DNA of 64,000 nucleotides, taken from IMG/VR virus record IMGVR_UViG_3300051215_000059. The stretch is one strand, 5' to 3'. The notes under the pieces are model-generated. The model was not told the origin of the DNA and made no database searches. It saw nothing but the letters and a program-made list of their open reading frames with translations. This document shows, piece after piece, positions 8,206 through 56,806 of this stretch. This stretch comes from a virus. Its lineage: Duplodnaviria > Heunggongvirae > Uroviricota > Caudoviricetes. Both the position numbers and the translations under genes were made by a program. Each line of letters starts with the position of its first letter. Position 1 is the first letter of the stretch.

Positions 8206-8227
8206 AATAAAAAGAGAGAGAGAAAAA

Positions 8228-9358
8228 ATGTCAGTATTTGACTCGAAAAACAAAGCCGACCACACCAAAACACTTGCGTTTATGGACCCAAGTGGTGGGG
8301 TTACTATTCAGCGTTACGATATGCTGAAATACAAACAGTTTGACAAACTCACTGATAAGCAGCTTGGTTTCTTCTGGCGTCCAGAAGAAATTGACGTAAT
8401 CAAAGATGCAAACGATTTCAAGCAACTCACCGACCACGAGAAGCACATCTTTACGTCCAACCTAAAGCGTCAGATTTTGCTTGACTCTGTTCAGGGACGT
8501 GCTCCAGTTGAAGCATTTGGTCCACTTGTTTCCATTCCAGAATTGGAAGCATGGATTCAAACTTGGACCTTCTCCGAAACTATTCACTCACGTTCATATA
8601 CTCATATCATTCGTAATATCTATGCAGACCCATCAAAGGTGTTTGATGAAATGATGGACATTCAGGAAATCATGGATTGCGCAGATGATATTTCTCGTAA
8701 CTATGATGAGTTGATTGAACAATCTGCATATTTCAATCTATTGGGTGCTGGAACACATACCGTAAACGGCAAAGAAATTGTGATTGATCCATATGAGATT
8801 AAAAAATCTCTTTACAAAACACTTATGAGTGTAAACATTTTGGAAGGTGTTCGCTTCTATGTTTCATTCGCTTGTTCTTGGGCATTTGCAGAACTCAAGA
8901 AGATGGAAGGCAATGCAAAGATCATCAAGCTAATTGCTCGTGATGAAAACCTACACCTTGCATCAACTCAGACTCTACTAAAACTTCTACCAAAGGACGA
9001 TCCAGATTACATCAAGATCGCACAAGAAGTTGAAGAAGAATGCATTCATATGTTTGTCGATGCGGTTGAACAAGAAAAGAAGTGGGCAGAATACCTATTT
9101 AAAGATGGTTCAATGATCGGTCTAAACGTCAAGCTATTGAACGACTACATTGAGTGGATCGCATGTAAGCGTATGCAAGCGGTAAACCTAAAATGCCCAT
9201 ACACTGTTTCTCAGTCAAACCCACTACCTTGGACACAAAAGTGGATTGCGGGGGCAGAAGTTCAGGTTGCACCACAAGAAGTTGAACTAAGTTCTTACAC
9301 TATCGGTGCAGTAAAGCAAGACGTAGATAAAAATACCTTCAGCGGTTTCTCCTTGTAA
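8228..9358 (+). CDS. nrdB: Ribonucleotide reductase class Ia beta subunit
   Basis: FFWRPEE, LLDSVQG, ETIHSRSY (radical Tyr), LEGVRF, RDENLH. Confidence 0.97.
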   Translation: MSVFDSKNKADHTKTLAFMDPSGGVTIQRYDMLKYKQFDKLTDKQLGFFWRPEEIDVIKDANDFKQLTDHEKHIFTSNLKRQILLDSVQGRAPVEAFGPLVSIPELEAWIQTWTFSETIHSRSYTHIIRNIYADPSKVFDEMMDIQEIMDCADDISRNYDELIEQSAYFNLLGAGTHTVNGKEIVIDPYEIKKSLYKTLMSVNILEGVRFYVSFACSWAFAELKKMEGNAKIIKLIARDENLHLASTQTLLKLLPKDDPDYIKIAQEVEEECIHMFVDAVEQEKKWAEYLFKDGSMIGLNVKLLNDYIEWIACKRMQAVNLKCPYTVSQSNPLPWTQKWIAGAEVQVAPQEVELSSYTIGAVKQDVDKNTFSGFSL

Positions 9359-40760: not shown

Positions 40761-41543
40761 ATGATGGCTGATTATGATATAATAATTATACGCCGTGGTC
40801 TTCGTTCAGAAATCACAGGTGACACTCTACAAACTGCGGAACAAGGTTTTACTACCGACACCAACCAATTGTTCATCGGAACTGATGATGCGTTGAATGA
40901 AATTGTTTTTGATCCATTCGCAAACGCACATGCTACCATTCAATCTTGGTTGAGTAGTTCAGAATGTCCACAACCAGGATTGGTTATTGATGAAGATTTA
41001 GTTATACGCAACGTAGACGATGTGAACGCACTACTATCTGCGATGCAAGTATCTGCATCATTCAATGTTGGTCTTTATGCTCGTGCAAGACGCAACGTAG
41101 AAATCATCACTGAAAACAGTTTCAACCAACTGTTTGCGGATCAGCACCTATCAAGTTTGGACCAATCAACTGGCCTTCGTTCCAGTTTGTATTCAAAGGT
41201 TCTTACTGGAGAAAGTGGCGTGTTCCTGTCATATGATATGAATGTATGCACTTCATTTTTTATCGATTATTCATTGAAGCAAACCAATGGAACTATCACA
41301 TATGTAAGAGTTGGAACTATACGTGTCATCAATGGTATTCCACAAGGAATAACACAAGGAAAACTAACAGACGAAAATACTGAAATTTGGCAAGATGATG
41401 GAGATTCTTTCCCTCAAGTTGAAGAATTTTCAAACATATCGTTTGATGTTCAATACACCGATGCTTATATGCAAGTTGCATATACTCAATTGCCAGATTT
41501 CATAACAAGCATAACATATACAGTGAAGAGATGGTCAATGTAA
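40761..41543 (+). CDS. Virion (tail/baseplate) protein with Mtd N-terminal-like motif
   Basis: IIIRRG...EQGFTTDTNQLFIG; late promoter at 40734. Confidence 0.6.
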   Translation: MMADYDIIIIRRGLRSEITGDTLQTAEQGFTTDTNQLFIGTDDALNEIVFDPFANAHATIQSWLSSSECPQPGLVIDEDLVIRNVDDVNALLSAMQVSASFNVGLYARARRNVEIITENSFNQLFADQHLSSLDQSTGLRSSLYSKVLTGESGVFLSYDMNVCTSFFIDYSLKQTNGTITYVRVGTIRVINGIPQGITQGKLTDENTEIWQDDGDSFPQVEEFSNISFDVQYTDAYMQVAYTQLPDFITSITYTVKRWSM

Positions 41544-44346: not shown

Positions 44347-45069
44347 ATGCGTATTGATGAAGTATTAAATCGTCGTCTTGAAGAGGGGGTTGACGATCCT
44401 CATATTTTCAAAGCACTATTTTTGGCTGGTGGCCCCGGTTCTGGAAAAAGTTATGTCTCTGGTAAAATGACAGGACAAAAGCACGTCAGAACTGGATTGA
44501 AGGTTGTAAACTCGGATGACATGTATGAGTATCTAATGGGCAAGGAAGGCATGGAAATGTCTCCTGACAATATCTTTAGTCCAAAAGGACAGGAGTTACG
44601 CCAACGTGCAAAAGAACTCACCAAGAGCCGCGAACAAATTTATACTGATGGGCGTCTTGGGCTAATCATTGATGGAACTGGTAAGGACGTAGACAAAGTT
44701 CGTGTCCAAAAAGAAAAGTTGGAAGAACTTGGGTATGACACGATGATGCTATTCATCAACACAAGTGAAGATATTGCTATTGCACGTGATGCGTCTCGTG
44801 AACGTTCGGTTGGTGCGAAAGAAGTTTCAAAAATGTGGAAATCGGTTCAAGATAATATTATGAAATTCCAACAGCTATTTGGTGCAAAAGACTTTCACGT
44901 TGTTGACAACTCTGGTGGCCTAGAAGATACTGACCGTGCTGATGAGTTTGCAAAAGTTGAATTAAATATTGACAAATTCCTAGCCACGCCACCACGAAAG
45001 CCACAGGCCAAGAAATGGATTCGTGCAGCAAAAGAAATCAAATCAAACGACCAGACACTTGACATTTGA
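44347..45069 (+). CDS. P-loop kinase (zeta-toxin/AAA_33-like)
   Basis: FLAGGPGSGKS, VVNSDD, LIIDGTG; late promoter at 44317. Confidence 0.8.
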   Translation: MRIDEVLNRRLEEGVDDPHIFKALFLAGGPGSGKSYVSGKMTGQKHVRTGLKVVNSDDMYEYLMGKEGMEMSPDNIFSPKGQELRQRAKELTKSREQIYTDGRLGLIIDGTGKDVDKVRVQKEKLEELGYDTMMLFINTSEDIAIARDASRERSVGAKEVSKMWKSVQDNIMKFQQLFGAKDFHVVDNSGGLEDTDRADEFAKVELNIDKFLATPPRKPQAKKWIRAAKEIKSNDQTLDI

Positions 45070-45096
45070 TTGTCAGTATGGTATAAAGGCTATTAA

Positions 45097-45933
45097 ATGA
45101 GTGATATAATAAAGCAACTACAACAGTTTAGAAAGCCGCTTGATTTGGAAAAACTCAAGCAAACGCATGTCCACTATTTCACACCTTGTTATGGTGGAAT
45201 GTTGACCGAAGGATTTTTTCGTTCTTGGAGCAAAGGAAATATTCTTTTCACAAAATACGGAATACCATATTCGGTAACGACAAGCGCAAATGAATCACTG
45301 ATACCACGTGCTCGCTGTCACATGGTTGCATACTTTCTTGCAAACCCAAAAGCAACGCACATGATGTTTATTGATGCCGACATCACATTTGACCCTGTTG
45401 ATATTCTGAATATGATACAACACGACAAAGATGTAATCGTTGGCGCATATCCAAAGAAAGAAGTTGATTGGAACAGCGTGAAGTCTGCGATTGAAAGCGG
45501 CATTGCTGGCAACCAACTCCGTGATACAGGTGCATCATATGCAATCAATTATGAATGGAAGTATGAAGACCAAGAAGATGGCACACAGAAACGAACACTT
45601 CAAATTGAGAATGGTTTGGTCAAGTTGAAAGATGGCGCTACTGGGTTTATGCTAATCAAACGCAGCGTATTTGAAAAGATGATCGAAGCGTATCCAGAAC
45701 TATACTTCAAAAATGACCTAAACCTTCCAGAAGATGTTGCCAAATGGACATATCTGTTTTTTGACTGTATGCATGACCCAGAATCAAAACGTTATTTGTC
45801 AGAAGATTATGCGTTCTGTCGCCGCTGGCAAAATCTAGGTGGCGAGGTGTGGCTTGACCCATTAGTGAAACTAGACCACATGGGAAGTTTCAACTTCAAC
45901 GGAAACGTAAGCAAAATGTTTCGTAGAATATAA
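45097..45933 (+). CDS. GT-A fold glycosyltransferase-like protein
   Basis: TPCYGG, DxD motif FIDADI, ATGFMLIKR, LSEDYAFC. Confidence 0.75.
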   Translation: MSDIIKQLQQFRKPLDLEKLKQTHVHYFTPCYGGMLTEGFFRSWSKGNILFTKYGIPYSVTTSANESLIPRARCHMVAYFLANPKATHMMFIDADITFDPVDILNMIQHDKDVIVGAYPKKEVDWNSVKSAIESGIAGNQLRDTGASYAINYEWKYEDQEDGTQKRTLQIENGLVKLKDGATGFMLIKRSVFEKMIEAYPELYFKNDLNLPEDVAKWTYLFFDCMHDPESKRYLSEDYAFCRRWQNLGGEVWLDPLVKLDHMGSFNFNGNVSKMFRRI

Positions 45934-45963
45934 AAAAAGCGGGGTTTATTTCCCCGCTTTTTT
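45933..45963. terminator. Bidirectional terminator
   Basis: A7-GCGGGG stem CCCCGC-T run between convergent genes. Confidence 0.8.
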
Positions 45964-46020
45964 CTTCTTTACTGGACGTGGCAGTTCTTCGTCTTCGCCA
46001 TAGTATGGAATATGTGACAT
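45946..46020 (-). CDS. Microprotein, 24 aa (MSHIPYYGEDEELPRPVKKKKAGK)
   Basis: AAGGAGG RBS; TAATG coupling. Confidence 0.6.
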   Translation of the reverse strand: MSHIPYYGEDEELPRPVKKKKAGK

Positions 46021-46082
46021 TACTTTCCTCCTTTTTTCTTTTCAGGCTGGCCGCGAAAGTATGTATGGTCTGGGTCTATCAT
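46020..46082 (-). CDS. Microprotein, 20 aa (MIDPDHTYFRGQPEKKKGGK)
   Basis: AAGGA RBS; TAATG coupling at both ends. Confidence 0.55.
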   Translation of the reverse strand: MIDPDHTYFRGQPEKKKGGK

Positions 46083-46252
46083 TATATCCATCCTTTCAAA
46101 TTTTGTTTTGCTCTAAGTTGCCATGGTGCTTCCCCACGTGCAATCAGGCGTTGACGGCGTTCTAAATCTGATAGGCTTAGACTGTCTGCCAGATATTCTT
46201 CAATAATGGTTTTCTCATCCTTGCGGACAAAAAGAGTTCTGATAAAATTCAT
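46082..46252 (-). CDS. DUF3563-like microprotein (56 aa)
   Basis: EEYLADSLSLSDLERRQRLIARG. Confidence 0.65.
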   Translation of the reverse strand: MNFIRTLFVRKDEKTIIEEYLADSLSLSDLERRQRLIARGEAPWQLRAKQNLKGWI

Positions 46253-46416
46253 CATTTGTTTGTTGCTCCATATGTTGCTTCATGTGCGATACCATGAATA
46301 TCACCTCTAGTGAATCCTAGGTCGTATAGTTCTCTGTCTGACATGCTTGACAGTTCGTTGAATGTCTGGCGATAAATCGCTCTTCTATTCCACCAAGTAA
46401 TGAACGCAGAAATCAT
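46252..46416 (-). CDS. DUF1127 small protein (54 aa)
   Basis: YRQTFNELSSMSDRELYDLGFTRGDI...A.EA.YG is the DUF1127 signature. Confidence 0.85.
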   Translation of the reverse strand: MISAFITWWNRRAIYRQTFNELSSMSDRELYDLGFTRGDIHGIAHEATYGATNK

Positions 46417-46586
46417 ATCTTCACTCCAACTGTTGGAAGTCTTCCGTTAGAGTTCAGAAGATATTCGTATGCCCACTGCCAGTCATTGCCATATTCAATT
46501 TTTGCCAAGGTCATCAAATCTGAACGATGCGACTTGGATTTGTTTGAGAACATTTTTACAAATGGTGCAAAAAATAGGTTAGTCAT
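46413..46586 (-). CDS. Microprotein (57 aa), first gene of the small-protein operon
   Basis: GGAG RBS; ATGA coupling to the DUF1127 gene. Confidence 0.7.
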   Translation of the reverse strand: MTNLFFAPFVKMFSNKSKSHRSDLMTLAKIEYGNDWQWAYEYLLNSNGRLPTVGVKI

Positions 46587-46757
46587 TTTAGTCTCCGTAT
46601 ATGTGTGATGTGTAAATAAAATGCCGCAATGCAGCATTAGTATTTATATGAATATATCAGTAAAATTGACCTATTTCAACCCACATTTTGGAAGACTCGG
46701 TTTGCGCTAACCGCATAGCTAGGGGCAGATAAATAAATTTGAACAAATGAGGTATCT

Positions 46758-47681
46758 ATGAAATTCAATGGGAACGTATTGGTTACTGGCGGCGCAGGGT
46801 TCGTCGGCAAGCACGTGGTAAGGAAGTTACAGTTAGAAGGATATAACGTAACTGTAATAGACCTGAAACCGCAACCAGATGACTTACAATTTGTTACATA
46901 CATTCAGGGTGACATTGTAGATATATCATCTTGTTTGACTGCTTGTGAAGATCAAGATTATGTTATACATATTGCCGCCAAGGCAAGAATACCAGAAAGT
47001 TTCACAAATCCAAGTGCATACTTTTTGAATAACGTAGTTGGCACACAGAACTTACTGGCGGCGGCGGCAGCTAAAAAAGTAAAAAAGGTGATATACGCAA
47101 GCAGTTCGAGTGTATACGGAAACCATCCAACACCAAACAAGCCATACCATAAACCAAATCCTCTGAACTATTATGCTATGACTAAGTTGTTCGGTGAACA
47201 TTTGTGTAAGCAGTTTCGTAATCTTTATGGGTTGGAATATACCATACTGAGACTGTTTACTGTATATGGTGATGGCCAACCGAATGATGATTCAAACGGT
47301 CTTATGATTTCAAAGTTTGCTCGGATGGCAGTAGAAGGAACCCCACTCACAGTTCATGGGGATGGTTCGGCAAGACGGGATTTCATCCATGTGTATGATG
47401 TTGCCAATGCGTTTTATGTTGCGATGAAAAGCAAGGTGAAAAACGAAGTGTTCAACGTAGGAACAGGAGAAAACATTTCTGTCAACGAAGTGGTTGACAT
47501 ATTGAAATCTTATGTAACTGACCTAAATATAAATCAGGTGTCCAATCCAAAAGGATATGCTACCACAACATTGGCTGACATATCAAAGATACGAAAGCTG
47601 ACGGGGTGGAAGCCAACTATCATGCCCGCCGATGGGATTTCTCTATTTTATTATGACTTGTTTAGTCAGAAAATACATTGA
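46758..47681 (+). CDS. NAD-dependent epimerase/dehydratase (extended SDR)
   Basis: GGAGFVG, ASSSSVYG, YAMTK, RDFIHV; late promoter at 46728. Confidence 0.92.
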   Translation: MKFNGNVLVTGGAGFVGKHVVRKLQLEGYNVTVIDLKPQPDDLQFVTYIQGDIVDISSCLTACEDQDYVIHIAAKARIPESFTNPSAYFLNNVVGTQNLLAAAAAKKVKKVIYASSSSVYGNHPTPNKPYHKPNPLNYYAMTKLFGEHLCKQFRNLYGLEYTILRLFTVYGDGQPNDDSNGLMISKFARMAVEGTPLTVHGDGSARRDFIHVYDVANAFYVAMKSKVKNEVFNVGTGENISVNEVVDILKSYVTDLNINQVSNPKGYATTTLADISKIRKLTGWKPTIMPADGISLFYYDLFSQKIH

Positions 47682-47738
47682 CTTTAGGCAATATGTATGA
47701 TATAAATATAGCATGTATTCTATTCAGAAAGATGAGTA

Positions 47739-48959
47739 ATGTCCGATAATAAAGATAAATTCAATCACAACCTTGATCCAATCTCACGGGTGAAATCAAA
47801 GATTAATGACCCGATGAACTTGCCTATGACTGGCGATCCAGACAAAGATAATATTACGATTCTTCCAGATCGTCCACCAATTTTTCACAACGTTCCGAAC
47901 TATACCATTGAAAAAAATCCATTTTCGTTCTTGTATATTGATATGACATACAAGTGTAACATGGAATGTGGTTTCTGCGATACGCCTGTTCGGCACTACA
48001 AAGATATGCCTATTGAAGTGTTTGAAGATATGTGCCGTAGGCTTCCTCGTCCAGTCAGTATGCGACTTCTTGGTGCAGAACCTACGTTGTATAAAGACTT
48101 GTTCAAGGCTATTGAAGTAGGAACAAAGTATGGCCATCAGCTTGCCATTGTCACTAACGGCATCCGTCTATCAAACAAAAATTATGTGAAAGATTTGAAA
48201 CGTGCAATTGATAATTGCGCTGACCCAAAACTTGTAAATCTATCTATTTCGCTGAATGGTGGATTTGAACGCGATGATTGGTATGAGACCATTGACCATG
48301 ATATCAGTCATCGTGCAAAGAAAGTTCAAGGTTTCCATAACGTTGTTGAGGCTGGATTCCGCAGACTATGTATCAATGCAATTATTGTCAAAAACCTAAA
48401 CGAAGGTGTTGTGAAAGAGTTCTACGACAAAGCAACTAGCTTACCACCGGGGGTGGTAACCAATATCCGTTTTAGAACCGCTGCAAAGCAGGGACGATAT
48501 GTTGAAGACCTTTATGAGAGTGAAGAAGAACACACATCGTATAGCGGTGTTGAACTCAACGAATATATCAAAACAATCATTCCCGAAGCAAACGCTCCGT
48601 TGAAATGGATTCGTGACGGTGTGAACCCAAGTGACGGTGCTGGCAATCATATCAACAACCCAAACCTAAAGTGCAATCAGTGTTGCTTGATGTATTACAT
48701 TCAGCCAAAACTATGGGTTGCCACTGTTGAGTTTGGCTCACACAACTCTGCTCTATGTTGGAGACGTGGACAATTTGTAACTTCAACGCAGACCATTCAG
48801 CCAGCCCACCATTATATTGACGAATTGAGTCGATATGTAAATACTTACGTTCCAGAAGGTATGAAACAACTTTCGGCACACCAACTAAAAAAGCGTATGT
48901 ATACAGATGTGGTCAAAAAGGGACGCAACCCATTGACTAATCCAAACTGGCAGGAGTAG
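47739..48959 (+). CDS. Radical SAM enzyme (MoaA-like N-domain)
   Basis: CNMECGFC, LGAEP, TNG; extra C-terminal CNQCC. Confidence 0.88.
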   Translation: MSDNKDKFNHNLDPISRVKSKINDPMNLPMTGDPDKDNITILPDRPPIFHNVPNYTIEKNPFSFLYIDMTYKCNMECGFCDTPVRHYKDMPIEVFEDMCRRLPRPVSMRLLGAEPTLYKDLFKAIEVGTKYGHQLAIVTNGIRLSNKNYVKDLKRAIDNCADPKLVNLSISLNGGFERDDWYETIDHDISHRAKKVQGFHNVVEAGFRRLCINAIIVKNLNEGVVKEFYDKATSLPPGVVTNIRFRTAAKQGRYVEDLYESEEEHTSYSGVELNEYIKTIIPEANAPLKWIRDGVNPSDGAGNHINNPNLKCNQCCLMYYIQPKLWVATVEFGSHNSALCWRRGQFVTSTQTIQPAHHYIDELSRYVNTYVPEGMKQLSAHQLKKRMYTDVVKKGRNPLTNPNWQE

Positions 48960-48960
48960 T

Positions 48961-49194
48961 ATGAAAATATTCGACTTTTCGCATTTGAACACAGTTGGAG
49001 AAACATATTGGCAGCATCTAAGATGGTGCCTATATTCCACTGGTGTTTTTGTCGTTATGATCTTTCTTGCGGTAGCACATGGAATATTTCCGTTTCTTTT
49101 TGCAAATCTTCCAGACCGTGTTATGATTTCGTATTTGAGAAATTTTCGAAAGCGTAGATATGAAACAGGACAGGCGGAAAGATTACCTGAATGA
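48961..49194 (+). CDS. Small membrane protein (DUF6356-like)
   Basis: HLNTVGETYWQH...AVAHGIFPFLF. Confidence 0.65.
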   Translation: MKIFDFSHLNTVGETYWQHLRWCLYSTGVFVVMIFLAVAHGIFPFLFANLPDRVMISYLRNFRKRRYETGQAERLPE

Positions 49195-50318
49195 TGTTTT
49201 CAACTGCATACATTCCATACCGTGCTTATTATTCTTCTCCGTATTCTCGTTACGGAAAAACATTCAAAAATGAAAACGCTATTGAACTAAGTTCTGCCAC
49301 CACTAAAAAATGGATGGAATCAAAATCATTTGATCCGTCCATTGTGGATTTTGTTATATACGGTAATTCAGTTCATCAGCATCATGGATTTTGGGCTGGA
49401 CCTTGGAGTGCTGCACTTATCGGAGCAGTCCATACAACAGGGACGATGATAAGTCAGGCTTGCACAACTGGTGCAACTGCGATATATCAAGCAGCATCGA
49501 ATGTTGAACTTGGTCTTTGCAACACTACATATACATTGGTAGCAGATAGAACATCAAATGGCCCAATCGTTCAGTGGGCAGAGTATGACAAAACAGAAAA
49601 TTGGATTGAGGATAACTTTCTTCTAGACCCATGGGGCAAGACTTCCATGCTGGAAACTGCCGATAGAGTTGCAAACTCTAAGGGTATAAGCAAATCGCAA
49701 GTTGATGACATTACAGTAAGACGATATGAACAGTATTATTCTTTATCCGAAAGACCATATATTTTTGAAACACTAGGATTGAAAGCAGACGAGGGTGTTA
49801 AAAAGATTGACCATGCAAGATTGGCTCGTTTATCTCCCGTTCAGTCGCATGGAGTTCATAGTATTGGAAATCTGACCTATCCTGCCGATGGGCATTGTGG
49901 AATATTTGTAACCGACCCATATACCGCAAAAGAAATGTCGAGTGAGTTGATACCAATACAACTATTGTCATATGGATACTCAAGATGTGAAAAATCTATG
50001 ATGCCTATTGCGTCAGTGGATGCAGCAAAGATGGCACTCAAAAATGCAGATGCATCCATTACAGATATGAAGGTAGTCAATCAACACAATGCTTTTGCTG
50101 TAAACGATATTGCTTTCGCAAATGAATTTGGAATCGACCCGTATGTAATGAACAACTATGGAAGTCCGTTGGTTTACGGACACCCTCAAAGCCCAGTTCT
50201 ATCGAGATTGATAATAGAAGGAATTGAGGAAGCGGTATCTGTTGGCGGCGGCTATGTTCTTGTAGCGGGCGCGGCTGGCGGGGATACTGGTGCAGCAGTG
50301 GTATTGAAAGTTGGATAA
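49191..50318 (+). CDS. Thiolase-family protein
   Basis: ISQACTTG, DRTSNGP, QHNAFAVND, YGHP, AAGGDTG. Confidence 0.85.
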   Translation: MMFSTAYIPYRAYYSSPYSRYGKTFKNENAIELSSATTKKWMESKSFDPSIVDFVIYGNSVHQHHGFWAGPWSAALIGAVHTTGTMISQACTTGATAIYQAASNVELGLCNTTYTLVADRTSNGPIVQWAEYDKTENWIEDNFLLDPWGKTSMLETADRVANSKGISKSQVDDITVRRYEQYYSLSERPYIFETLGLKADEGVKKIDHARLARLSPVQSHGVHSIGNLTYPADGHCGIFVTDPYTAKEMSSELIPIQLLSYGYSRCEKSMMPIASVDAAKMALKNADASITDMKVVNQHNAFAVNDIAFANEFGIDPYVMNNYGSPLVYGHPQSPVLSRLIIEGIEEAVSVGGGYVLVAGAAGGDTGAAVVLKVG

Positions 50319-50910
50319 GTTTGAAAACATACCTTGGCCAAACTGGAAAGGGCAAAAGTATTTAGGTGAGATTGACTTGTCTGGTCCTTCTCTTATCGAC
50401 TATTTGGATTGTCCAGAGGCAGCACCATTGCATCAAAATATTGTTTCTATACTAAAAAATAATGATTGCAAGAATGTCGTGGATGTTGGATGTGGCGAAG
50501 CAAGAATAGTGGAAAGATATGATTTTTCTCATTACATGGGTTTTGATTTAGAAAAACGACTTCTTCTTAGAGCACGACGAAGATACCGAGAAAAACAGAA
50601 CCATGAGTTTAGGCATTGCGGTTGGAATGATGACGTGTCTGTGAGTTTCAAGGTGGATGCGTTAATGTTCATAGGAACACTAAGTTACAATGAGAACCAT
50701 ATAGATGGGTTTGAAAAACTTTGTCAACTATACCGACCACGCATAGTAATAATTCAAGAAATTTTGCAGGAACAGACATATGTCGCAGAAACAAACAAGT
50801 TGAAAGCGATGCCGCTTGATTATTATATGTCATATCCTCATAAGTATCACGAGTTTGATTTGCCAGTATGGTGTGGACACAGAGCGCAGTTAGAGATTTA
50901 CTATGAGTAA
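50311..50910 (+). CDS. Class I SAM-dependent methyltransferase
   Basis: VVDVGCGEAR, YMGFDLE; TTG start overlapping the thiolase stop. Confidence 0.8.
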   Translation: MDKFENIPWPNWKGQKYLGEIDLSGPSLIDYLDCPEAAPLHQNIVSILKNNDCKNVVDVGCGEARIVERYDFSHYMGFDLEKRLLLRARRRYREKQNHEFRHCGWNDDVSVSFKVDALMFIGTLSYNENHIDGFEKLCQLYRPRIVIIQEILQEQTYVAETNKLKAMPLDYYMSYPHKYHEFDLPVWCGHRAQLEIYYE

Positions 50911-51679
50911 ATTTACGAAACAAGTAAGACCAATAGTCTTACCAGAAGTAAATAGTCTCATTAAAAAATCTGGTATCATGCCAATCAATGATGACTGTAG
51001 ATATAAGACAAATATAAAAGAATGGCTAAGTCCTGTCATTGACCTAAGTGAATTTTATGTATATCCTATCAATGGAATTACAGAAGGATTGAATTACTGG
51101 TCTGGAAAAGAACAGAGGAATATTACAAAAATTGATGGCGATTACGAATGGGTAGATTCCACATTTTGTAGAAATGGTGAAATAAGATATGTATCTGTGC
51201 CAAGTTCAGTTGACGGAAATTTCAAAGAACTCGACTATGACGGACCTATCGCATTAGATATAGCATATGTTGGAACCACGAAGCCACAATTCATACCTAT
51301 GGCTGAAAGCATTGAAACTGTATTCTATAGTCTTAGTAAACCGTTTGGTCTTAAAAATCTAAGAACTGGTTGGTATTTCACACGGCGTCCAGATGTGAAA
51401 CTTTACAATCTTCATATCAAGTCAAACTACTATAACTATTTCTCTCATCAAATAGCAGAACTTGTGATTGAGCACTTTACAATTGACTATGTTTATGATA
51501 GAATGAGAAAAATACAGTTGGATGTATGTGATAAAATGAACCTCATTCCGAGTGATAGTGTTTGGCTTGCTACATCAGATGATAATATCTATGATAGCTT
51601 CAAACGTGGAAACACCAATCGGCTGTGTATTACTGAGTTTATGAAAGAGCATGAAGGTATATCAGAACTTTATTCTTGA
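50903..51679 (+). CDS. Truncated PLP-dependent fold-type I enzyme
   Basis: NGITEGL, LDIAY, PLP-lysine motif YSLSKPFGLKNLRTGW. Confidence 0.7.
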   Translation: MSKFTKQVRPIVLPEVNSLIKKSGIMPINDDCRYKTNIKEWLSPVIDLSEFYVYPINGITEGLNYWSGKEQRNITKIDGDYEWVDSTFCRNGEIRYVSVPSSVDGNFKELDYDGPIALDIAYVGTTKPQFIPMAESIETVFYSLSKPFGLKNLRTGWYFTRRPDVKLYNLHIKSNYYNYFSHQIAELVIEHFTIDYVYDRMRKIQLDVCDKMNLIPSDSVWLATSDDNIYDSFKRGNTNRLCITEFMKEHEGISELYS

Positions 51680-52541
51680 TAGCACACGTTGGAACCACAT
51701 TGCAGAACGCGATGGGGATGTAATTGTTTCAACTCCTTATAAGAGTGGAACCACGTGGATGCAAAATATTGTCTTGCATCTTATATTCTTAGACTTTCAG
51801 TCAAGAAACATCAACACTTTTTCTCCTTGGATAGAAAACAGAATCAAACCTATAAATGAACTCAAAGAGATTGTGGAGTCACAGCAACACCGCAGATGCT
51901 TCAAGACGCACTTACCAGCAGATGGCTTGAAAATACGAGGTAACAGCAAATACATTATTGTTGGGCGTGATCCAAGGGATGTGTTTGTGTCTCTATGGAA
52001 CCAATATAAAAACTACACTCCTGAGTTTTATGAGTTAGTAAACAATACGCCAGGTCGTGTAGGAAATGAATTACCAGTATGCCCAACACATGTTTCTGAT
52101 TTTTGGGATATGTGGATAAACAGAGGATGGTTTCCTTGGGAGAATGAAGGATATCCGCACTGGTCAAATCTTAGAAATGTTCAAACTTGGTGGGATATAT
52201 CAACACATCCAAATATATTGTTAGTCCACTATAACGATTTGTTGGTAACGCCAATAGATGAAATTAAAAAAATATCCCAGTTTTTGAATATATACATAGA
52301 CATGGAAGCTGCTAAACGTATCTCTGAATTAGTAAGTTTTTCATACATGAAATCAAATTCGGATATCCTATTGCCAAATAGTTCTAAAACCTATAAAGAT
52401 GGAAATCATTCTTTTTTTAATAGCGGAACATCAAATCAATGGAAGTCAGTTTTATCTGAGAAACAGCTTTCGGAATACGAAATAGTATCAAACAATGAAC
52501 TTACAAAAGAATGCAAAAAATGGTTAGAGGGAAGTGAATAA
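51651..52541 (+). CDS. PAPS-dependent sulfotransferase (SULT-like)
   Basis: 5'-PSB TPYKSGTTW, catalytic KTHLP, 3'-PB RDPRDVFVS. Confidence 0.9.
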   Translation: MKVYQNFILDSTRWNHIAERDGDVIVSTPYKSGTTWMQNIVLHLIFLDFQSRNINTFSPWIENRIKPINELKEIVESQQHRRCFKTHLPADGLKIRGNSKYIIVGRDPRDVFVSLWNQYKNYTPEFYELVNNTPGRVGNELPVCPTHVSDFWDMWINRGWFPWENEGYPHWSNLRNVQTWWDISTHPNILLVHYNDLLVTPIDEIKKISQFLNIYIDMEAAKRISELVSFSYMKSNSDILLPNSSKTYKDGNHSFFNSGTSNQWKSVLSEKQLSEYEIVSNNELTKECKKWLEGSE

Positions 52542-53961
52542 GATGAACAAGAACGCAACACAGTATTTCATACGCAAAGCGCCGACTATTGCAATTTATT
52601 ACGAAGATGAAAAGATTACATATGATTCTCTGTATGACAACGTGAATCGTTATGCGAATCTGCTTTCATCAAAATATAATAAGGGAGACGAAATCCTTGT
52701 TATTATGAATGACCGCCCAGAATATTTCTATTTGTTTTGGGGGGCAGTCAAGGTTGGTATTATCCCTTCACTTCTAAGCACTATGCTAACAGACGATGAA
52801 TACCAAAAAATCAAGAGCGAAAAAAAATACAAACATGTTTTCACTGATGAAAACATTGCAGAGTTTGATGCCGCTGCAACATCAACCGACGAGTGTGATA
52901 TGGCTCATGCAGAAGATACAGACCTGTGTTTCTACTTGTTTTCAAGTGGGACAACTGGTTATATAACTGCCATTCCGCATAAGCATCGGGACATGGCACG
53001 AACAGCAATCAATTATGCCAAAAAAACATTGAATATGACCGCATATGATGTTTGCTACAGTTCTGCAAAACTATTCTTTGCTTATGGATTTGGCAACAGC
53101 ATGACATTTCCATTGTTTGTGGGTGCATCAACAGTTCTGGTATCAGAGTCATCTACTGCGAAAACCGCACTGGAAACAATTGAGAAGTATAAGCCATCGC
53201 TATATTTCGGAGTTCCAACTTTATATGCACATATGTTGAAATCTCTATCAACGTCTTCTCGTGACCTTAGTTCAGTCCGTTTGTGTATTAGTGCAGGGGA
53301 ACCATTATCTGCCAAAATATTCAATGATTGGAACAAAACGACTGGTGCGAAAATACTTGATGGCATCGGGACGACTGAGGCTCTACACATCTTCATTTCT
53401 AATCGTGTTGAAGACAACGAAGCTGGATGCAGTGGAAGATTGGTTCCTGGGTATCAGGCACGAATACTTGATGTTCAAGGAAATGAGGTTCCAGATGGTG
53501 AAGTTGGATATCTTTACATAAAAGGAGAAAGCATCAGCGGCGACAATGAGTGGAATAGCACTGGCGATATGTTTATAAAGAATGGTCCAAAGTATTACTA
53601 TCAGGGACGAGCAAATGACATGCTCAAAATTGGTGGACTTTGGGTGTCTCCAACAAAAATTGAAAGTAAAATCATGGAACATTCAAATGTTCTTGAAGTC
53701 GGGGTGGTTCAAAGTTCAGACGCCAATGGACTGATAAAACCAAAAGCGTATGTTGTCACCAAGTCGCCATGCGATGACCCAATAAAGTTTCGCAATGAAC
53801 TAAAAAAACTATGCATTGATGAGTTGCCACCAAATCACTATCCGAATTGGATAGAACTTGTTTCGAGTCTACCAAAAACTGCGACTGGAAAAATAAAACG
53901 ATTTCAACTCCGAGTGGCAGATGCATTTTCTCCACCAAATGAAGAAGTGAGTGAGGGGTGA
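52534..53961 (+). CDS. Benzoate-CoA ligase-family adenylating enzyme
   Basis: KLFFAYGFGNSMTFPL, FGVPTLY, ISAGEPL, DGIGTTE.LHIF, TGD, LPKTATGKIKR. Confidence 0.88.
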   Translation: MNKMNKNATQYFIRKAPTIAIYYEDEKITYDSLYDNVNRYANLLSSKYNKGDEILVIMNDRPEYFYLFWGAVKVGIIPSLLSTMLTDDEYQKIKSEKKYKHVFTDENIAEFDAAATSTDECDMAHAEDTDLCFYLFSSGTTGYITAIPHKHRDMARTAINYAKKTLNMTAYDVCYSSAKLFFAYGFGNSMTFPLFVGASTVLVSESSTAKTALETIEKYKPSLYFGVPTLYAHMLKSLSTSSRDLSSVRLCISAGEPLSAKIFNDWNKTTGAKILDGIGTTEALHIFISNRVEDNEAGCSGRLVPGYQARILDVQGNEVPDGEVGYLYIKGESISGDNEWNSTGDMFIKNGPKYYYQGRANDMLKIGGLWVSPTKIESKIMEHSNVLEVGVVQSSDANGLIKPKAYVVTKSPCDDPIKFRNELKKLCIDELPPNHYPNWIELVSSLPKTATGKIKRFQLRVADAFSPPNEEVSEG

Positions 53962-54594
53962 TTAAATATCACCCCAATTACAATATCCACTAAAGTTTAT
54001 AAACACTCTTGTGGTGTTTGCGTTTCGAACACCATGAATTACCTTGTTGGCGTTTAGCACGGTTGGGTGCTGAGTGCTATAAGAGTGAGTTCCCAACAAA
54101 TAATCTTCATTGTGTTCTACAGTTGTAAAGTTGCCCTTATTCACTACTGGCAAATCATCTTTATATAAGTGAACAGTTGCGCCGCCTTCCGCTGGAAGTA
54201 TTGGGACCATAATGCTGCATGTTCTTGCGAAATCTTTGTGTGGTGGAAGTTCAAAGTTTGGTCCGTATATCCAAAGAACTGGAAAGTTTGGTCCAGTTGT
54301 TTTTGTAATATATTCCAATTCTTTTGTGAGTCTGTTTACTTCTGGATTGTCATATCTTTCCAGATGACGAATGAACTTGTGTTGGTCCCCAGAATGTTGA
54401 TGCTTTCCAGATGGAAGGCATTTTGGGCATATACATCTAAAGTATGGGCTATCTTCCGCATCATCTTCAATATAATCCGTGTGACGTTCTATATAGTTCA
54501 CAGCCTTGTGTTTTATGCTGTGATAAAATCGTTCAAGTTCTTCACGGTCATAAGTTATATGTTTTAGTTCTTTGATGTGTGCTTCAGTTATCAT
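53962..54594 (-). CDS. Fe(II)/2OG-dependent oxygenase-like protein
   Basis: HxD in PPHKD, distal His in IHGVRN, downstream R. Confidence 0.65.
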   Translation of the reverse strand: MITEAHIKELKHITYDREELERFYHSIKHKAVNYIERHTDYIEDDAEDSPYFRCICPKCLPSGKHQHSGDQHKFIRHLERYDNPEVNRLTKELEYITKTTGPNFPVLWIYGPNFELPPHKDFARTCSIMVPILPAEGGATVHLYKDDLPVVNKGNFTTVEHNEDYLLGTHSYSTQHPTVLNANKVIHGVRNANTTRVFINFSGYCNWGDI

Positions 54595-55120
54595 TTTTTG
54601 TGCTTTCTAAAAACTTTTCTACATTCAATTTCCACAATGTCTGTGGGGTATCGTATAATATAACTTCTTTTATATATTCTATGTAGGAATCATTTATTTT
54701 AGATTCTATTTTGAGTGACCTATCATACCGTGTGATTTCTCCATAAACTGGATTTTCTACATTTGTTGTCACATATAAGTCTTTGGTTGGAAGTTCAGTG
54801 ATGAAGGAATTTATATATAGCTTTCCTCTTGCACCAGTCCCACGATGCAGACCTTTGTTTGTTCCTGACTTTGGAAGGGTGGCACTGCGAAAAAATATTC
54901 TCCAAGCGTTTTCTGAAATCTGTGGAAGATATTGATATCCAGCAACCGACACCAGTTTGTCGTTGACAGTGATTCCAAAAAATCCGCCACCTTCATTTAT
55001 AGTCCGTTCAAATTTCATTGCCTTCAAAGAGCTATTATTTACCCAACCCAGTGCCTCGCATTCTTTACAGAAGCCTTCCACTACTGACTTGTCTTCTAAA
55101 GATAGTTTATGTATTATCAT
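54584..55120 (-). CDS. GNAT-fold acyltransferase-like protein
   Basis: FFGITVNDKLVSVAG...RIFFRSATLP. Confidence 0.5.
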   Translation of the reverse strand: MIIHKLSLEDKSVVEGFCKECEALGWVNNSSLKAMKFERTINEGGGFFGITVNDKLVSVAGYQYLPQISENAWRIFFRSATLPKSGTNKGLHRGTGARGKLYINSFITELPTKDLYVTTNVENPVYGEITRYDRSLKIESKINDSYIEYIKEVILYDTPQTLWKLNVEKFLESTKNDN

Positions 55121-55694
55121 CCAAAATCACTGCTACCAAATGTATGCGGTCTTCCTTACTGCCATTGAAGGCTGTATGATGAAGAATAGTATTTGTATGC
55201 CACCAAGTTTGTTGAGGCAAGTGTTTTACTTCGTCCTCAATAATCATAAAACAACCCTCTTGAGTTTTGATTGGAAAGTGAATACGGGGGGTCGAGTCAA
55301 CGTGCCAAGTCAAGCAAGTTTTTGATTTGCTTTTCATGATACGAACTCTTCCAACGTGGTAATGTTTGGTTAGTTCTTTGTATACATCTTCAAATACGGT
55401 GCTTTCAAATTGCTTACACAACACGTTGAAATCGCCTTCTTTCAATGGAACGTCATACGGAGGAACTATTATTTTTTCGTGTCCATATTCATCTATGGTT
55501 TCAATGGCATTGTCCCAATCTAAGCTGAGACTTCCCGTTCCCTTTTTGTAGTTTGTTTCATGCCCGATAATGCTGTTCAAACATATTTGATTCGAGTCTG
55601 CCCAACTTATGGTGTTTGATGCCAAAAGTTTGTTTAGCTCTTCAAGTAAGTTTGTGTATATAGGTAGGTTAGTGAGTTGAGTATAATGTGACAT
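55107..55694 (-). CDS. Asp/Asn beta-hydroxylase-like Fe(II)/2OG oxygenase
   Basis: RVRIM...LTWHVD...RIHFPI...HHTAFN...DRIHLV. ATG at 55694 follows GAGGA; CATAAATA on the minus strand at 55718-55725. Confidence 0.75.
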   Translation of the reverse strand: MSHYTQLTNLPIYTNLLEELNKLLASNTISWADSNQICLNSIIGHETNYKKGTGSLSLDWDNAIETIDEYGHEKIIVPPYDVPLKEGDFNVLCKQFESTVFEDVYKELTKHYHVGRVRIMKSKSKTCLTWHVDSTPRIHFPIKTQEGCFMIIEDEVKHLPQQTWWHTNTILHHTAFNGSKEDRIHLVAVILDDNT

Positions 55695-55734
55695 TTTATC
55701 CTCGTTGTTTATACAACTATTTATGCTTTGCCTA

Positions 55735-55765
55735 TTGACATTCCAAGACGAATCGTGTATAAATA
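55735..55765 (+). promoter_or_regulatory. Composite sigma70/late promoter of tmRNA, with GAATC
   Basis: TTGACA-N17-TATAAA overlapping TATAAATA; GAATC at 55750-55754. Confidence 0.7.
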
Positions 55766-55769
55766 GTAT

Positions 55770-56085
55770 TGTAATCGTTGAAGCAGACGATAGACATTCT
55801 GGACCTGGGGGCAGTACCCAGCGGGTCCACCACAGATACATTCCTACAGGAATCTGATCAATTCTGGGTTGGTTCCACACCGTGCAAGAGGAACTGAGTG
55901 TATCTTTGATGGGCTCGAAATAGGATCGACAGGTGTTGAAAGCAAGTGGAGATTACCGTGTTGGCCTACGTTATTCAGCCAAAAAACTAAATGCAAACGA
56001 AAACTTTGCTCCTGTAGCTTACGCACTAGCTGCCTAATCTACTTGGGTGGGTCACCTACCTCGAAACAGAAACGGTGACACTCAC
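55770..56085 (+). ncRNA. ssrA: Circularly permuted two-piece tmRNA
   Basis: Acceptor piece: T-arm CTGGG-GGCAGTA-CCCAG then CGGGTCC-ACCA (ends 55832). Coding piece starts GGGCTCG at 55911 (G3:U70 pair). Tag ANENFAPVAYALAA* at 55993-56037. Outer ends are approximate. Confidence 0.92.
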
Positions 56086-56206: not shown

Positions 56207-56806
56207 ATGGAACCAACTCCTACTGGATTTTCGGATAAAATAGCTTACGGTTTGACTATGAGTTTCCGTTGGTTTGCAGATACATTTTTTGCAAAACGAT
56301 ATGGACATAGAGCCGTAGTGTTAGAAACTGTCGCGGGAGTTCCTGGAATGGTGGCGGGAATGTGGCAACACTTGCGAAGTCTTCGCAAGATGAAACCAGA
56401 TGAACGTGGATGGATCAAAACCTTATTGGACGAAGCAGAAAACGAGCGTATGCATCTCATGATTTTCATTGAGATTGCAAAACCAAACTGGTTTGAACGA
56501 TTACTTGTGCTGTTTGCTCAATTTGTGTTTTGGCACTTCTACTTCGTTCTATATGTTTTCTTTCCGAAAACTGCACACCGAATGATTGGTTACTTTGAAA
56601 ACCAAGCAGTAGTGAGTTACACACAATACTTAGAAGAAATTGACTCTGGCAGAACAGAGAATATACCAGCACCGAAAATAGCGATAGACTACTATAAGCT
56701 GAAATCCACTGCAACGTTGCGAGACGTTATAGTTGCAGTGAGAGCCGACGAACAAGGGCATGCTGATGTGAACCACGGAATGGCAGACGAACTAATAACC
56801 AAGTAA
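56207..56806 (+). CDS. aox: Alternative oxidase (ubiquinol oxidase)
   Basis: LETVAGVPGM, EAENERMHL, ENQAVVSY and RADEQGH diiron motifs. Confidence 0.93.
   Translation: MEPTPTGFSDKIAYGLTMSFRWFADTFFAKRYGHRAVVLETVAGVPGMVAGMWQHLRSLRKMKPDERGWIKTLLDEAENERMHLMIFIEIAKPNWFERLLVLFAQFVFWHFYFVLYVFFPKTAHRMIGYFENQAVVSYTQYLEEIDSGRTENIPAPKIAIDYYKLKSTATLRDVIVAVRADEQGHADVNHGMADELITK

Follow-up and report, generated by a model that had tools for sequence, protein, structure and literature searches.

The DNA considered here is a window of 64,000 nucleotides from a longer IMG/VR viral record (IMGVR_UViG_3300051215_000059, Caudoviricetes; 113,174 bases), and at positions 46758-55694 it carries a cassette of eleven open reading frames (ORFs), eight on the plus strand and three on the minus strand. 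The core of this cassette is a co-inherited unit across diverged phages. It consists of a radical S-adenosylmethionine (SAM) enzyme, a thiolase-like enzyme, a compact pyridoxal phosphate (PLP) enzyme, an aryl-coenzyme A (CoA) ligase, an Fe(II)/2-oxoglutarate (2OG) oxygenase of the double-stranded beta-helix (DSBH) type, a predicted GNAT-fold acyltransferase and usually a second, AspH-like oxygenase, and its genes keep together in 7-8 distinct marine viral loci whose identities range from 44 to 84%. The other four genes, which encode a short-chain dehydrogenase/reductase (SDR), a methyltransferase, a sulfotransferase and the small membrane protein DUF6356, are exchangeable add-ons. We propose, with somewhat less than even confidence, that this is a functional, virus-specific biosynthetic cassette, a tailoring island of the kind called type C below, and that it makes a decorated acyl or aryl amine for the envelope or the virion surface.

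A core co-inherited across diverged marine phages

The loci compared were the contigs carrying homologues of the radical SAM enzyme together with IMG/VR loci found with the thiolase, sulfotransferase and PLP alignments, and all ORFs of these 47 loci (designated L with a number) were clustered to obtain a map of neighbourhoods. The core was found in L002/L041, L013/L014, L015/L016, L020/L021, L022/L023, L024 and L027, and in part in L017. Its recurrent order is radical SAM gene, thiolase-like gene, PLP gene and ligase gene, with optional genes between them: DUF6356 or SET before the thiolase-like gene, the methyltransferase after it, and the sulfotransferase or a 303-aa protein before the ligase. 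In the core loci the genes of the DSBH oxygenase, the GNAT and usually the AspH-like enzyme converge on this operon, and the GNAT is co-conserved in L002, L013, L015, L017, L022-L024 and L027. L017 has radical SAM, SET, thiolase, PLP, GNAT and DSBH genes and no ligase gene, and in both L017 and L027 the GNAT and DSBH genes lie upstream in the same direction rather than converging, and still adjoin the PLP or radical SAM gene. Linkage that persists in this way through rearrangements is what one would expect if the genes form a functional unit.

An earlier reading of this DNA, made from the sequence only, had taken the ten enzymes as members of one pathway, which was too much: linkage stands for the core and does not extend to the SDR, the sulfotransferase, the methyltransferase and DUF6356, which are accessory or facultative. 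That sequence-only reading had also named genes that are not co-conserved in relatives, and catalytically dead enzymes, as findings that would count against it; the core gave the opposite result, with adjacency in 7-8 viral loci, including the rearranged L017 and L027, and conserved catalytic residues with ratios of nonsynonymous to synonymous substitution (dN/dS) of 0.01-0.09. The genes of the cassette are intact and under strong purifying selection. Against L020, a strain diverged at synonymous sites (dS 0.8-2.3), dN/dS was 0.011-0.093 for 10 of the 11 genes, with values of 0.011 for the radical SAM gene, 0.038 for the thiolase-like gene and 0.055 for the SDR gene; for the methyltransferase it could not be computed, dS being saturated (dN 0.039).

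The add-ons are distributed more sparsely. The SDR is found only in the near-identical strains L020/L021 (L017 has an unrelated SDR), and this presence in a near-identical strain alone, together with a promoter-like motif of its own, speaks against counting it in a single pathway. The sulfotransferase is limited to two lineages, L002/L041 and L020/L021, its slot in L022-L024 and L027 being taken by the 303-aa protein; this could not be accepted as a diverged sulfotransferase, since there is no similarity between the two. DUF6356 is present in L013/L014, L020, L022/L023 and L027, and a small SET-domain protein stands in its place in L002 and L017. Homologues of the methyltransferase occur in L004-L006 (42% identity in L004) and L013/L014 (57% in L013), and the family is also found in L020, L022/L023 and L049/L050/L052.

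One may also consider that the cassette is a mosaic of independent auxiliary metabolic genes, brought together by chance in a hypervariable region and having no common product, which we regard as very improbable. A mosaic would account for the great differences in island make-up among related phages, for the four genes that come and go and for the neighbouring alternative oxidase gene (AOX, see below), which is simply present or absent between close strains. However, six to seven core genes remain linked across the whole range of identity and across rearrangements, and overlap-based translational coupling runs throughout: from the radical SAM gene to the ligase gene the joins are a 1-nt gap followed by overlaps of 4, 8, 8, 29 and 8 nt, and on the minus strand overlaps of 11 and 14 nt join the three genes. 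Natural fusions also oppose a mosaic. The PLP enzyme is found joined to the same families as its neighbours, with an N-terminal radical SAM domain (676 aa, L061:6777-8807, plus strand, in an Obscuribacterales metagenome-assembled genome, MAG), with an N-terminal PhyH oxygenase (609 aa, P0152) or with a C-terminal SET domain (424 aa, P0053), which argues for work on one substrate. Lastly, when 185,579 genomes of cellular species were scanned by pattern for homologues of the PLP enzyme, only two hits were obtained, the L061 fusion and one 6.9-kb MAG contig. The PLP family thus appears to be virus-restricted, although a pattern-based scan may miss distant homologues, and families that are essentially absent from cellular genomes are not copies of host metabolic genes.

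Enzymes of the cassette

The positions of the genes and of two associated features are collected in Table 1. The ten enzyme assignments of the sequence-only reading were all supported, by Pfam or NCBIfam matches, by conserved catalytic residues or by predicted folds.

Table 1. The cassette and associated features, in coordinates of the window.
Feature	Position	Strand	Basis or remark
Mtd_N-domain fibre-type protein	40761..41543	+	PF18454, 36.9 bits, window 40782-40880; ~5 kb upstream, context, outside the cassette
Extended-SDR NDP-sugar epimerase/dehydratase-type enzyme, 307 aa, accessory	46758..47681	+	Pfam Epimerase 1e-63
Radical SAM enzyme, 406 aa, core	47739..48959	+	Pfam Radical_SAM 1.4e-14
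DUF6356 small membrane protein, 77 aa, facultative	48961..49194	+	Pfam DUF6356 1.6e-10
Thiolase-like enzyme, 375 aa, core	49191..50318	+	Thiolase_N and Thiolase_C above cut-off
Class-I SAM methyltransferase, 199 aa, TTG start, facultative	50311..50910	+	Motif I 'VVDVGCGEA'
Compact class-I fold-type-I PLP enzyme, 258 aa, anchor of the island family	50903..51679	+	Predicted structure and invariant residues
PAPS-type sulfotransferase, 296 aa, accessory	51651..52541	+	Sulfotransfer_1 8.7e-40, 137 bits (cut-off 22)
Benzoate-CoA-ligase-family adenylate-forming enzyme, 475 aa, core	52534..53961	+	TIGR02262; true start may be ATG 52543
Perfect 8-bp hairpin GGGGTGAT/ATCACCCC, 5-nt loop	53955..53975	.	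Centred on the stop codons of the ligase and the 210-aa oxygenase
DSBH Fe(II)/2OG oxygenase, 210 aa, N-terminal Cys-rich motif, core	53962..54594	-	Predicted fold and HxD...H
GNAT-fold acyltransferase, 178 aa, core	54584..55120	-	Predicted fold
Asp/Asn-beta-hydroxylase-family (LpxO/AspH-like) Fe/2OG oxygenase, 195 aa	55107..55694	-	Asp_Arg_Hydrox 1.1e-8

The radical SAM enzyme scores 55.1 bits against its Pfam model (cut-off 29.5), and its CX3CX2C cysteines (C73, C77 and C80) are invariant in 26 sequences, as are four C-terminal ones, C312, C315, C316 and C340. Its homologues, which all come from metagenomes of marine or aquatic origin, form 41 clusters with identities of 53-97%. No NCBIfam subfamily could be assigned, the matches lying far under the cut-offs (best 48 bits against 325).

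The 258-aa protein is, on its predicted structure, a miniaturised class-I fold-type-I PLP enzyme. The AlphaFold2 (AF2) model (pLDDT 81) has Foldseek matches of probability 1.0 to alliinase, TAA1, HisC, CobD and C-S lyases (TMq ~0.6), and N106, D119, Y122, S143, S145, K146 and R154 are invariant in eight homologues. By analogy with the class, K146 of the SxSK motif would be the Schiff-base lysine, and D119, Y122, N106 and R154 would be PLP ligands. The protein falls short of the Aminotran_1_2 cut-off (16.8 against 19.7 bits) and of the ~350-400 aa of the full-length architecture; distant members of the family do pass, for example P0048 at 36.9 bits. A parallel with biotin synthesis (BioW, BioF, BioB and BioC) was considered and rejected, since the NCBIfam equivalog models for those enzymes had no match.

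The ligase scores 408.2 bits against TIGR02262, above the curated family cut-off of 375.25, and its PDB matches are benzoate-CoA ligase (2v7b, 1.5e-87) and anthranilate-CoA ligase (4wv3, 1e-85), in a range of 1e-82 to 1e-87 that includes BadA (4eat). The motifs of the ANL enzymes, namely the A3 P-loop, A5 GEP, A7 DGxGxTE, the A8 hinge and the A10 lysine of 'PKTATGK', are kept in 8 ligase homologues; the P-loop reads SSGTTGYIT here and ...GY(I/L)K in relatives, which retain the lysine. The phage enzyme thus shares the family score and the ANL motifs with the benzoate and anthranilate ligases, but is ~45-50 aa shorter at the N-terminus, has a variant P-loop and stands in a viral context.

The thiolase-like enzyme passes the cut-offs of both Thiolase_N and Thiolase_C (40.8 and 45 bits), and the closest solved structure is BktB (4.6e-20). 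With biosynthetic thiolases such as BktB and PhaA it shares the two-domain fold and the nucleophilic cysteine, asparagine and histidine, Cys91, Asn300 and His331 (nucleophile and oxyanion-hole residues) being invariant. In contrast to these thiolases, the phage family has replaced the second catalytic cysteine: where BktB reads 'MCIGGGQG' the phage enzyme reads 'GAAGGDTG', with alanine at that position, and all nine of nine distinct homologues have alanine or glycine there. The replacement is a stable family trait and not decay. Without the second cysteine the canonical Claisen or thiolysis mechanism is unavailable, and we therefore call the enzyme thiolase-like rather than a canonical thiolase.

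The 210-aa oxygenase has an invariant H119xD121...H187 triad with R196, and an invariant C54/C56/C59/H65 (CxCxxC...H). Pfam had no match for it or for any of its five homologues; its AF2 model (pLDDT 84) has Foldseek matches of probability 1.0 to ALKBH5, AlkB, AsqJ and P4H, all at a TM-score (TM) of ~0.5. The 195-aa oxygenase scores 35.6 bits against Asp_Arg_Hydrox (cut-off 22.6) and conserves H131xD133...H172/H173 and R183; its family is present in 19 of the 47 loci. A profile-profile comparison of the two oxygenases, based on shallow alignments, found no similarity. For the 178-aa protein, which has no Pfam match, the Atlas model matched GNAT clusters at TM 0.58-0.65, 98-100% of whose members carry Acetyltransf_1, and the nearest viral clusters are named N-acetyltransferase; its 'HRGTGARG' fits the acyl-CoA motif A, R/QxxGxG/A, loosely.

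Among the add-ons, the sulfotransferase (which would use 3'-phosphoadenosine 5'-phosphosulfate, PAPS) shows the 5'-PSB loop, catalytic histidine and 3'-PB motifs ('YKSGTTW', 'KTHLP' and 'RDPRDVFVS'), and its nearest solved structures are cytosolic phenol/aryl SULT1 enzymes (8e-18). No adenosine 5'-phosphosulfate (APS) kinase was found in the 113-kb record, so that either the host or the two-thirds of the genome outside the record would have to supply PAPS. The methyltransferase has matches to Methyltransf_25, 31 and 12 of ~2e-5, under the Pfam cut-offs. The SDR, of the nucleoside diphosphate (NDP)-sugar epimerase type, scores 174 bits against the GalE model, below the equivalog cut-off of 262, with GxxGxxG and YxxxK visible. 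An OleABCD-like reading of the cassette was rejected, given that OleD was only one weak SDR match among 50 families and that the ligase belongs to the benzoate clade.

Islands anchored on the compact PLP enzyme and their surroundings

Variable islands anchored on the PLP enzyme, lying beside tail-fibre and baseplate genes in marine myophages, form a widespread family, and the cassette is a member of it, which the sequence-only reading had missed. Of the 47 loci, 44 carry the compact PLP gene, which anchors islands of three flavours, A, B and C, and an exhaustive profile search gave 638 clusters of the PLP family at 50% identity, nearly all of 240-330 aa. Type A begins with an Mtd_N fibre gene, followed by a membrane desaturase, the PLP enzyme, an AspH-like enzyme and an unnamed 158-aa protein. 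Type B combines the PLP enzyme and the same radical SAM enzyme with an 81-aa PP-binding acyl carrier protein (ACP), a phosphopantetheinyl transferase (ACPS) and a 525-aa radical SAM enzyme; type B loci (L007, L010, L026 and L028-L032) also carry HAD, NTP-transferase and several unnamed families of 286-371 aa, and these islands are bordered by dihydrofolate reductase (DHFR) and thymidylate synthase genes. Type C is the cassette studied here, in which the ligase and the thiolase-like enzyme stand where type B has the ACP and the phosphopantetheinyl transferase. Further recurrent members of the islands are TauD, SET, B12-radical SAM, QueC-like PP-loop, carbamoyltransferase, NTP-transferase, HAD and nitroreductase proteins. 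Of fifteen unnamed neighbour families, twelve had no match in Pfam or NCBIfam.

The desaturase, found as a membrane FA_desaturase in 22 of the 47 loci, and the ACP with its transferase in type B would suit an island that remodels envelope amino-lipids, tailoring a host membrane lipid (ornithine-lipid, sphingolipid or sulfonolipid-like) and altering the cell surface in infection. DUF6356, as a membrane protein, would fit as well. LpxO and OlsC, two members of the Asp_Arg_Hydrox family, hydroxylate lipids, and bacterial aminolipids and ceramides are made by GNAT-fold N-acyltransferases, SDR reductases, acyl-CoA/ACP ligases and PLP condensing enzymes. Nevertheless we consider lipid remodelling quite unlikely: type C is without the desaturase, the ligase is of the benzoate/anthranilate rather than the fatty-acyl clade, and the PLP enzyme has the class-I signature 'SxSKxxGxxxxRxG', with HisC, alliinase and TAA1, not alpha-oxoamine synthases, among its top 50 fold matches. 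A sphingolipid reading of the PLP enzyme itself, as similar to serine palmitoyltransferase (SPT), was rejected because the class-I signature and the fold matches oppose it.

Other island members point in the direction of nucleotides. QueC-like PP-loop ATPases are present in L022/L023, L033/L034, L036-L038 and L049-L052, and in L022/L023 and L049-L052 they adjoin a Fer4_12-type radical SAM gene, a pairing that recalls QueC/QueE and gives a lead to nucleobase chemistry for some variants. The corresponding alternative, to which we assign a small probability, is hypermodification of DNA or nucleotides, in which the radical SAM and PLP enzymes, the AlkB-like oxygenase, the GNAT, the methyltransferase and others would build a base that shields the DNA from host nucleases. 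Pairs of radical SAM and PLP enzymes reportedly serve thymidine hypermodification in phages, ALKBH5 and AlkB head the fold matches obtained with the 210-aa oxygenase, and ThyA, ThyX and DHFR genes border related islands. NUDIX and NTP-transferase genes as well as the QueC-like/Fer4_12 pairs occur in relatives, a P-loop kinase (Zeta_toxin/AAA_33) is encoded at 44347-45069, and hypervariability suits an arms race with restriction systems. Relatives also carry carbamoyltransferases, a family that is reportedly tied to phage cytosine modification (PMC8670742). On the other hand, Pfam and NCBIfam recognised no base hydroxymethylase, aGPT-Pplase-type transferase or DpdA/TGT in the cassette, and the AlkB-like fold match is weak (TM ~0.5) and equalled by matches to prolyl hydroxylases. 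The cassette also lies behind the structural and fibre genes, apart from the replication and nucleotide block with the ribonucleotide reductase (RNR) genes at 5911-9358. Finally, we know of no DNA-modification route that uses an aryl-CoA ligase, a thiolase-like enzyme, a phenol-type sulfotransferase or a membrane protein, or the desaturase and ACP of the sister islands.

The neighbourhood of fibre genes raises a further alternative, that the substrates are virion proteins. In 8 related loci no more than one gene separates a PLP-anchored island from an Mtd_N fibre gene upstream; in L002/L041 the order is Mtd_N fibre gene, S8 peptidase and then the cassette, and in the other Mtd_N loci the fibre gene directly precedes the island. 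The oxygenases, the GNAT and SET proteins could then act on residues of the fibre or baseplate, with the ligase and thiolase-like enzyme supplying an acyl group to be attached to the fibre. The AspH family, prolyl-hydroxylase-like DSBH enzymes, SET and GNAT proteins are classical protein modifiers, late-type promoter motifs would co-express the cassette with structural genes, the S8 peptidase precedes the cassette in L002, and in the window the fibre gene is ~5 kb upstream. We nonetheless think virion-protein modification improbable, because fold-type-I PLP enzymes need a free amine and, as far as we know, do not act on internal protein residues, and the CoA ligase with the thiolase-like enzyme, the desaturase, the ACP and the SULT1-type sulfotransferase indicate a small-molecule or lipid substrate. 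Nor did we identify a candidate precursor peptide or modified fibre motif.

As to the genomic setting, the size of the record at a CheckV completeness of 31% implies a jumbo phage. The rest of the record is phage-typical (RNR subunits, helicases, primase and virion proteins), GC content is ~40% all along, and the cassette shows no compositional break. Before the cassette come, in this order, the Mtd_N fibre protein, a DUF7217 structural gene, the Zeta_toxin/AAA_33 P-loop kinase (240 aa, plus strand, 2.4 kb upstream) and a GT-A/Anp1-like protein (278 aa, 45097-45933, plus strand). The GT-A assignment is tentative, coming from a weak Anp1 match (E 0.0013) and a language-model lead, and the kinase and this protein might feed the cassette, for example via a phosphorylated sugar or nucleotide. 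Between the GT-A-like gene and the SDR gene there is a minus-strand operon of small proteins (46082-46637: DUF3563, DUF1127 and a 74-aa ORF). The kinase, the GT-A-like gene and this small operon are all kept in L020/L021.

The ORF listing and the sequence reproduced all the ORF coordinates, overlaps or near-abutments and the zero-gap convergent junction that had been described from the letters alone. At this junction TGA (53959-53961) is followed immediately by TTA (53962-53964), the reverse complement of TAA. The hairpin that covers it may be a bidirectional terminator or a stability element; a 60-nt stretch around the junction has a predicted fold of -16 kcal/mol. The hairpin is kept in L020, and different hairpins lie at the same junction in L002 and L015. 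The ORF program lists the last minus-strand gene as 55107-55880, from an upstream GTG, but its start is most likely ATG 55694, since homologues align from there.

The three NATAAATA motifs of the sequence-only reading are present, as GATAAATA at 46728 before the SDR gene, TATAAATA at 47701 before the radical SAM gene and CATAAATA at 55718-55725 on the minus strand before the 195-aa gene. There is no enrichment of the strict T4 octamer TATAAATA, which occurs 4 times in the window where 3.2 copies are expected. ATAAATA is strongly strand-biased there, with 23 copies on the plus strand and 2 on the minus strand. The zone 26-43 nt before the starts of plus-strand genes covers ~2% of the window and yet holds 12 of the 23 plus-strand copies, and one more lies at 12 nt; both minus-strand copies precede the two minus-strand operons. 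This strand bias and placement make it a credible promoter element, and ATAAATA is probably the core of a phage promoter.

Beyond the cassette, and divergent from its minus-strand operon, lies a permuted tmRNA of the alphaproteobacterial type (55731-56080, plus strand; Rfam alpha_tmRNA 114.8 bits, tmRNA_permuted 121.1 bits). The tmRNA and the intergenic stretch up to the 195-aa gene are near-identical in strain L020, although synonymous sites of coding genes are saturated. It is followed by the AOX gene (56207-56806, plus strand, Pfam AOX 1.5e-80) with a terminator. In the close strains L020 (17960-18435) and L021 there is no AOX, and the tmRNA leads directly to the first ART-like gene, a clean presence/absence difference of ~770 bp.

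Proposed pathway and comparison with known systems

If the cassette does make a decorated acyl or aryl amine, its chemistry could run as follows. The ligase would activate a carboxylic acid, probably aromatic, to a CoA thioester, and Cys91 of the thiolase-like enzyme would accept the acyl group; because that enzyme is without the base cysteine, the next step would be either acyl transfer or a decarboxylative condensation to a beta-keto thioester. The compact PLP enzyme may then install or process an amine on the acyl skeleton, and the radical SAM enzyme may carry out a radical rearrangement or a C-C/C-H step on the same intermediate. The GNAT would N-acylate, the two Fe/2OG oxygenases would hydroxylate, the methyltransferase would methylate and the sulfotransferase would O-sulfate. 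The product would be a small hydroxylated, methylated and sulfated acyl or aryl amine, or such a moiety on something larger, and it would likely act at the cell envelope or the virion surface, affecting host recognition or superinfection exclusion. The benzoate/anthranilate clade of the ligase, the phenol-SULT1-like sulfotransferase and TAA1 among the fold matches of the PLP enzyme suggest an aromatic substrate. An envelope or virion-surface target is favoured by the DUF6356 membrane protein, the desaturase of the sister islands, the fibre-gene neighbourhood and hypervariability.

Several points weigh against this proposal. Each chemical step is read from family membership, and the closeness to fibre genes is circumstantial. 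The thiolase-like enzyme lacks a canonical catalytic residue, so that more than one type of reaction can be envisaged for it, and no characterised protein is closely related to the radical SAM enzyme, MoaA, BlsE and GDGT-MAS matching it at ~1e-7 to 1e-13 in the core fold only. The PLP enzyme resembles HisC, alliinase and TAA1, and not the aminotransferase domains of iturin synthetases or the alpha-oxoamine synthases; in half of the related islands it is not accompanied by this radical SAM enzyme. Several related islands are bordered by genes for thymidylate synthase, ThyX or DHFR, an arrangement that would suit a nucleotide target equally, and the late timing of ATAAATA is assumed from T4.

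A bolder extension, which we regard as rather doubtful, is that marine myophages and jumbo phages carry a virus-restricted, combinatorial, natural product-like toolkit built on the mini PLP enzyme, and that the product of this cassette is an aryl-acyl amine, sulfated and hydroxylated, which is attached to the virion fibre or to the surface of infected cells and helps to set host range or superinfection exclusion. If so, phages would be making specialised metabolites or surface modifications of a new class. A product acting on receptors, fibres or DNA would represent a new layer of host-range control in marine virus-host dynamics, and a free metabolite would be one of the rare instances of specialised metabolism encoded by a phage. 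In any case, phages of the most abundant ocean bacteria devote 5-15 kb of a size-limited genome to such islands. The seven co-inherited genes now define a minimal unit, the compact PLP enzyme can serve as a marker gene for finding all island variants, and the cultured Pelagibacter phage Mosig EXVC030M (MT647606) offers an entry point. The enzymes are notable in themselves, being a fold-type-I PLP enzyme of ~250 aa, a thiolase without the base cysteine and a radical SAM family, as yet uncharacterised, that carries a C-terminal motif of four cysteines.

In the loading module of the iturin and mycosubtilin synthetases an acyl-AMP ligase, an ACP, a ketosynthase and a PLP aminotransferase domain produce a beta-amino acyl thioester. 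The cassette brings together the same chemistries (ligase, thiolase-superfamily enzyme, aminotransferase-fold PLP enzyme and thioester carriers), which is an analogy and not membership. Unlike those synthetases, the phage proteins are free-standing and, in type C, use CoA, and they add a radical SAM enzyme, oxygenases, a GNAT and a sulfotransferase; the likeness drawn here is one of chemistry.

Phage clusters for thymidine hypermodification contain a radical SAM isomerase and a PLP decarboxylase together with the kinase 5-HMUDK and aGPT-Pplase. The cassette has in common with them the radical SAM/PLP pair, variability between relatives and the P-loop kinase upstream, and differs in adding a CoA ligase, a thiolase-like enzyme and a sulfotransferase. 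In the interval 44347-55880 Pfam and NCBIfam recognised no hydroxymethylase, 5-HMUDK or aGPT-Pplase, with the limits that aGPT-Pplase models were not searched by name and that the kinase at 44347 was not compared with 5-HMUDK.

The nearest parallel is the hypervariable 'host recognition cluster' (HRC) of pelagimyophages, which holds tail fibres, glycosyltransferases and radical SAM cassettes and has no function assigned (Zaragoza-Solas et al. 2020, PMC7029224). The cassette studied here fits this type in lying beside fibre genes and in varying in content between related phages. Common to it, to the host recognition clusters of pelagimyophages and cyanomyophages (PMC7029224) and to Mosig is a variable fibre-adjacent island with radical SAM, AspH-like, methyltransferase and acetyltransferase genes. 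In Mosig the island consists of AspH, desaturase, PLP, TauD, methylase, N-acetyltransferase and AspH genes and runs into tail-fibre genes, and two of its proteins are homologues of cassette enzymes, one being related to the compact PLP enzyme at 44% identity and the other to the methyltransferase at 30%. By contrast, the 24.7-kb island region of Mosig, when searched, was without this radical SAM family, the thiolase-like enzyme, the aryl-CoA ligase, the 210-aa DSBH enzyme, the 178-aa GNAT and the sulfotransferase. The host recognition cluster literature (PMC7029224) does not describe this gene set, and a literature search of open-access text found no phage paper with this combination. Among 50,697 GenBank phage records there was no homologue of the radical SAM protein (a tblastn search gave a match at chance level only) or of the PLP protein except the PLP enzyme of Mosig, and megablast of the 9.1-kb region against these records gave no match. 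The cassette also differs from the phages with host recognition clusters in its setting, a jumbo-phage fragment with a different backbone around it. Fibre-adjacent variable enzyme islands of marine myophages were already known, coarsely, and what is new is a defined conserved core and its unusual enzymes.

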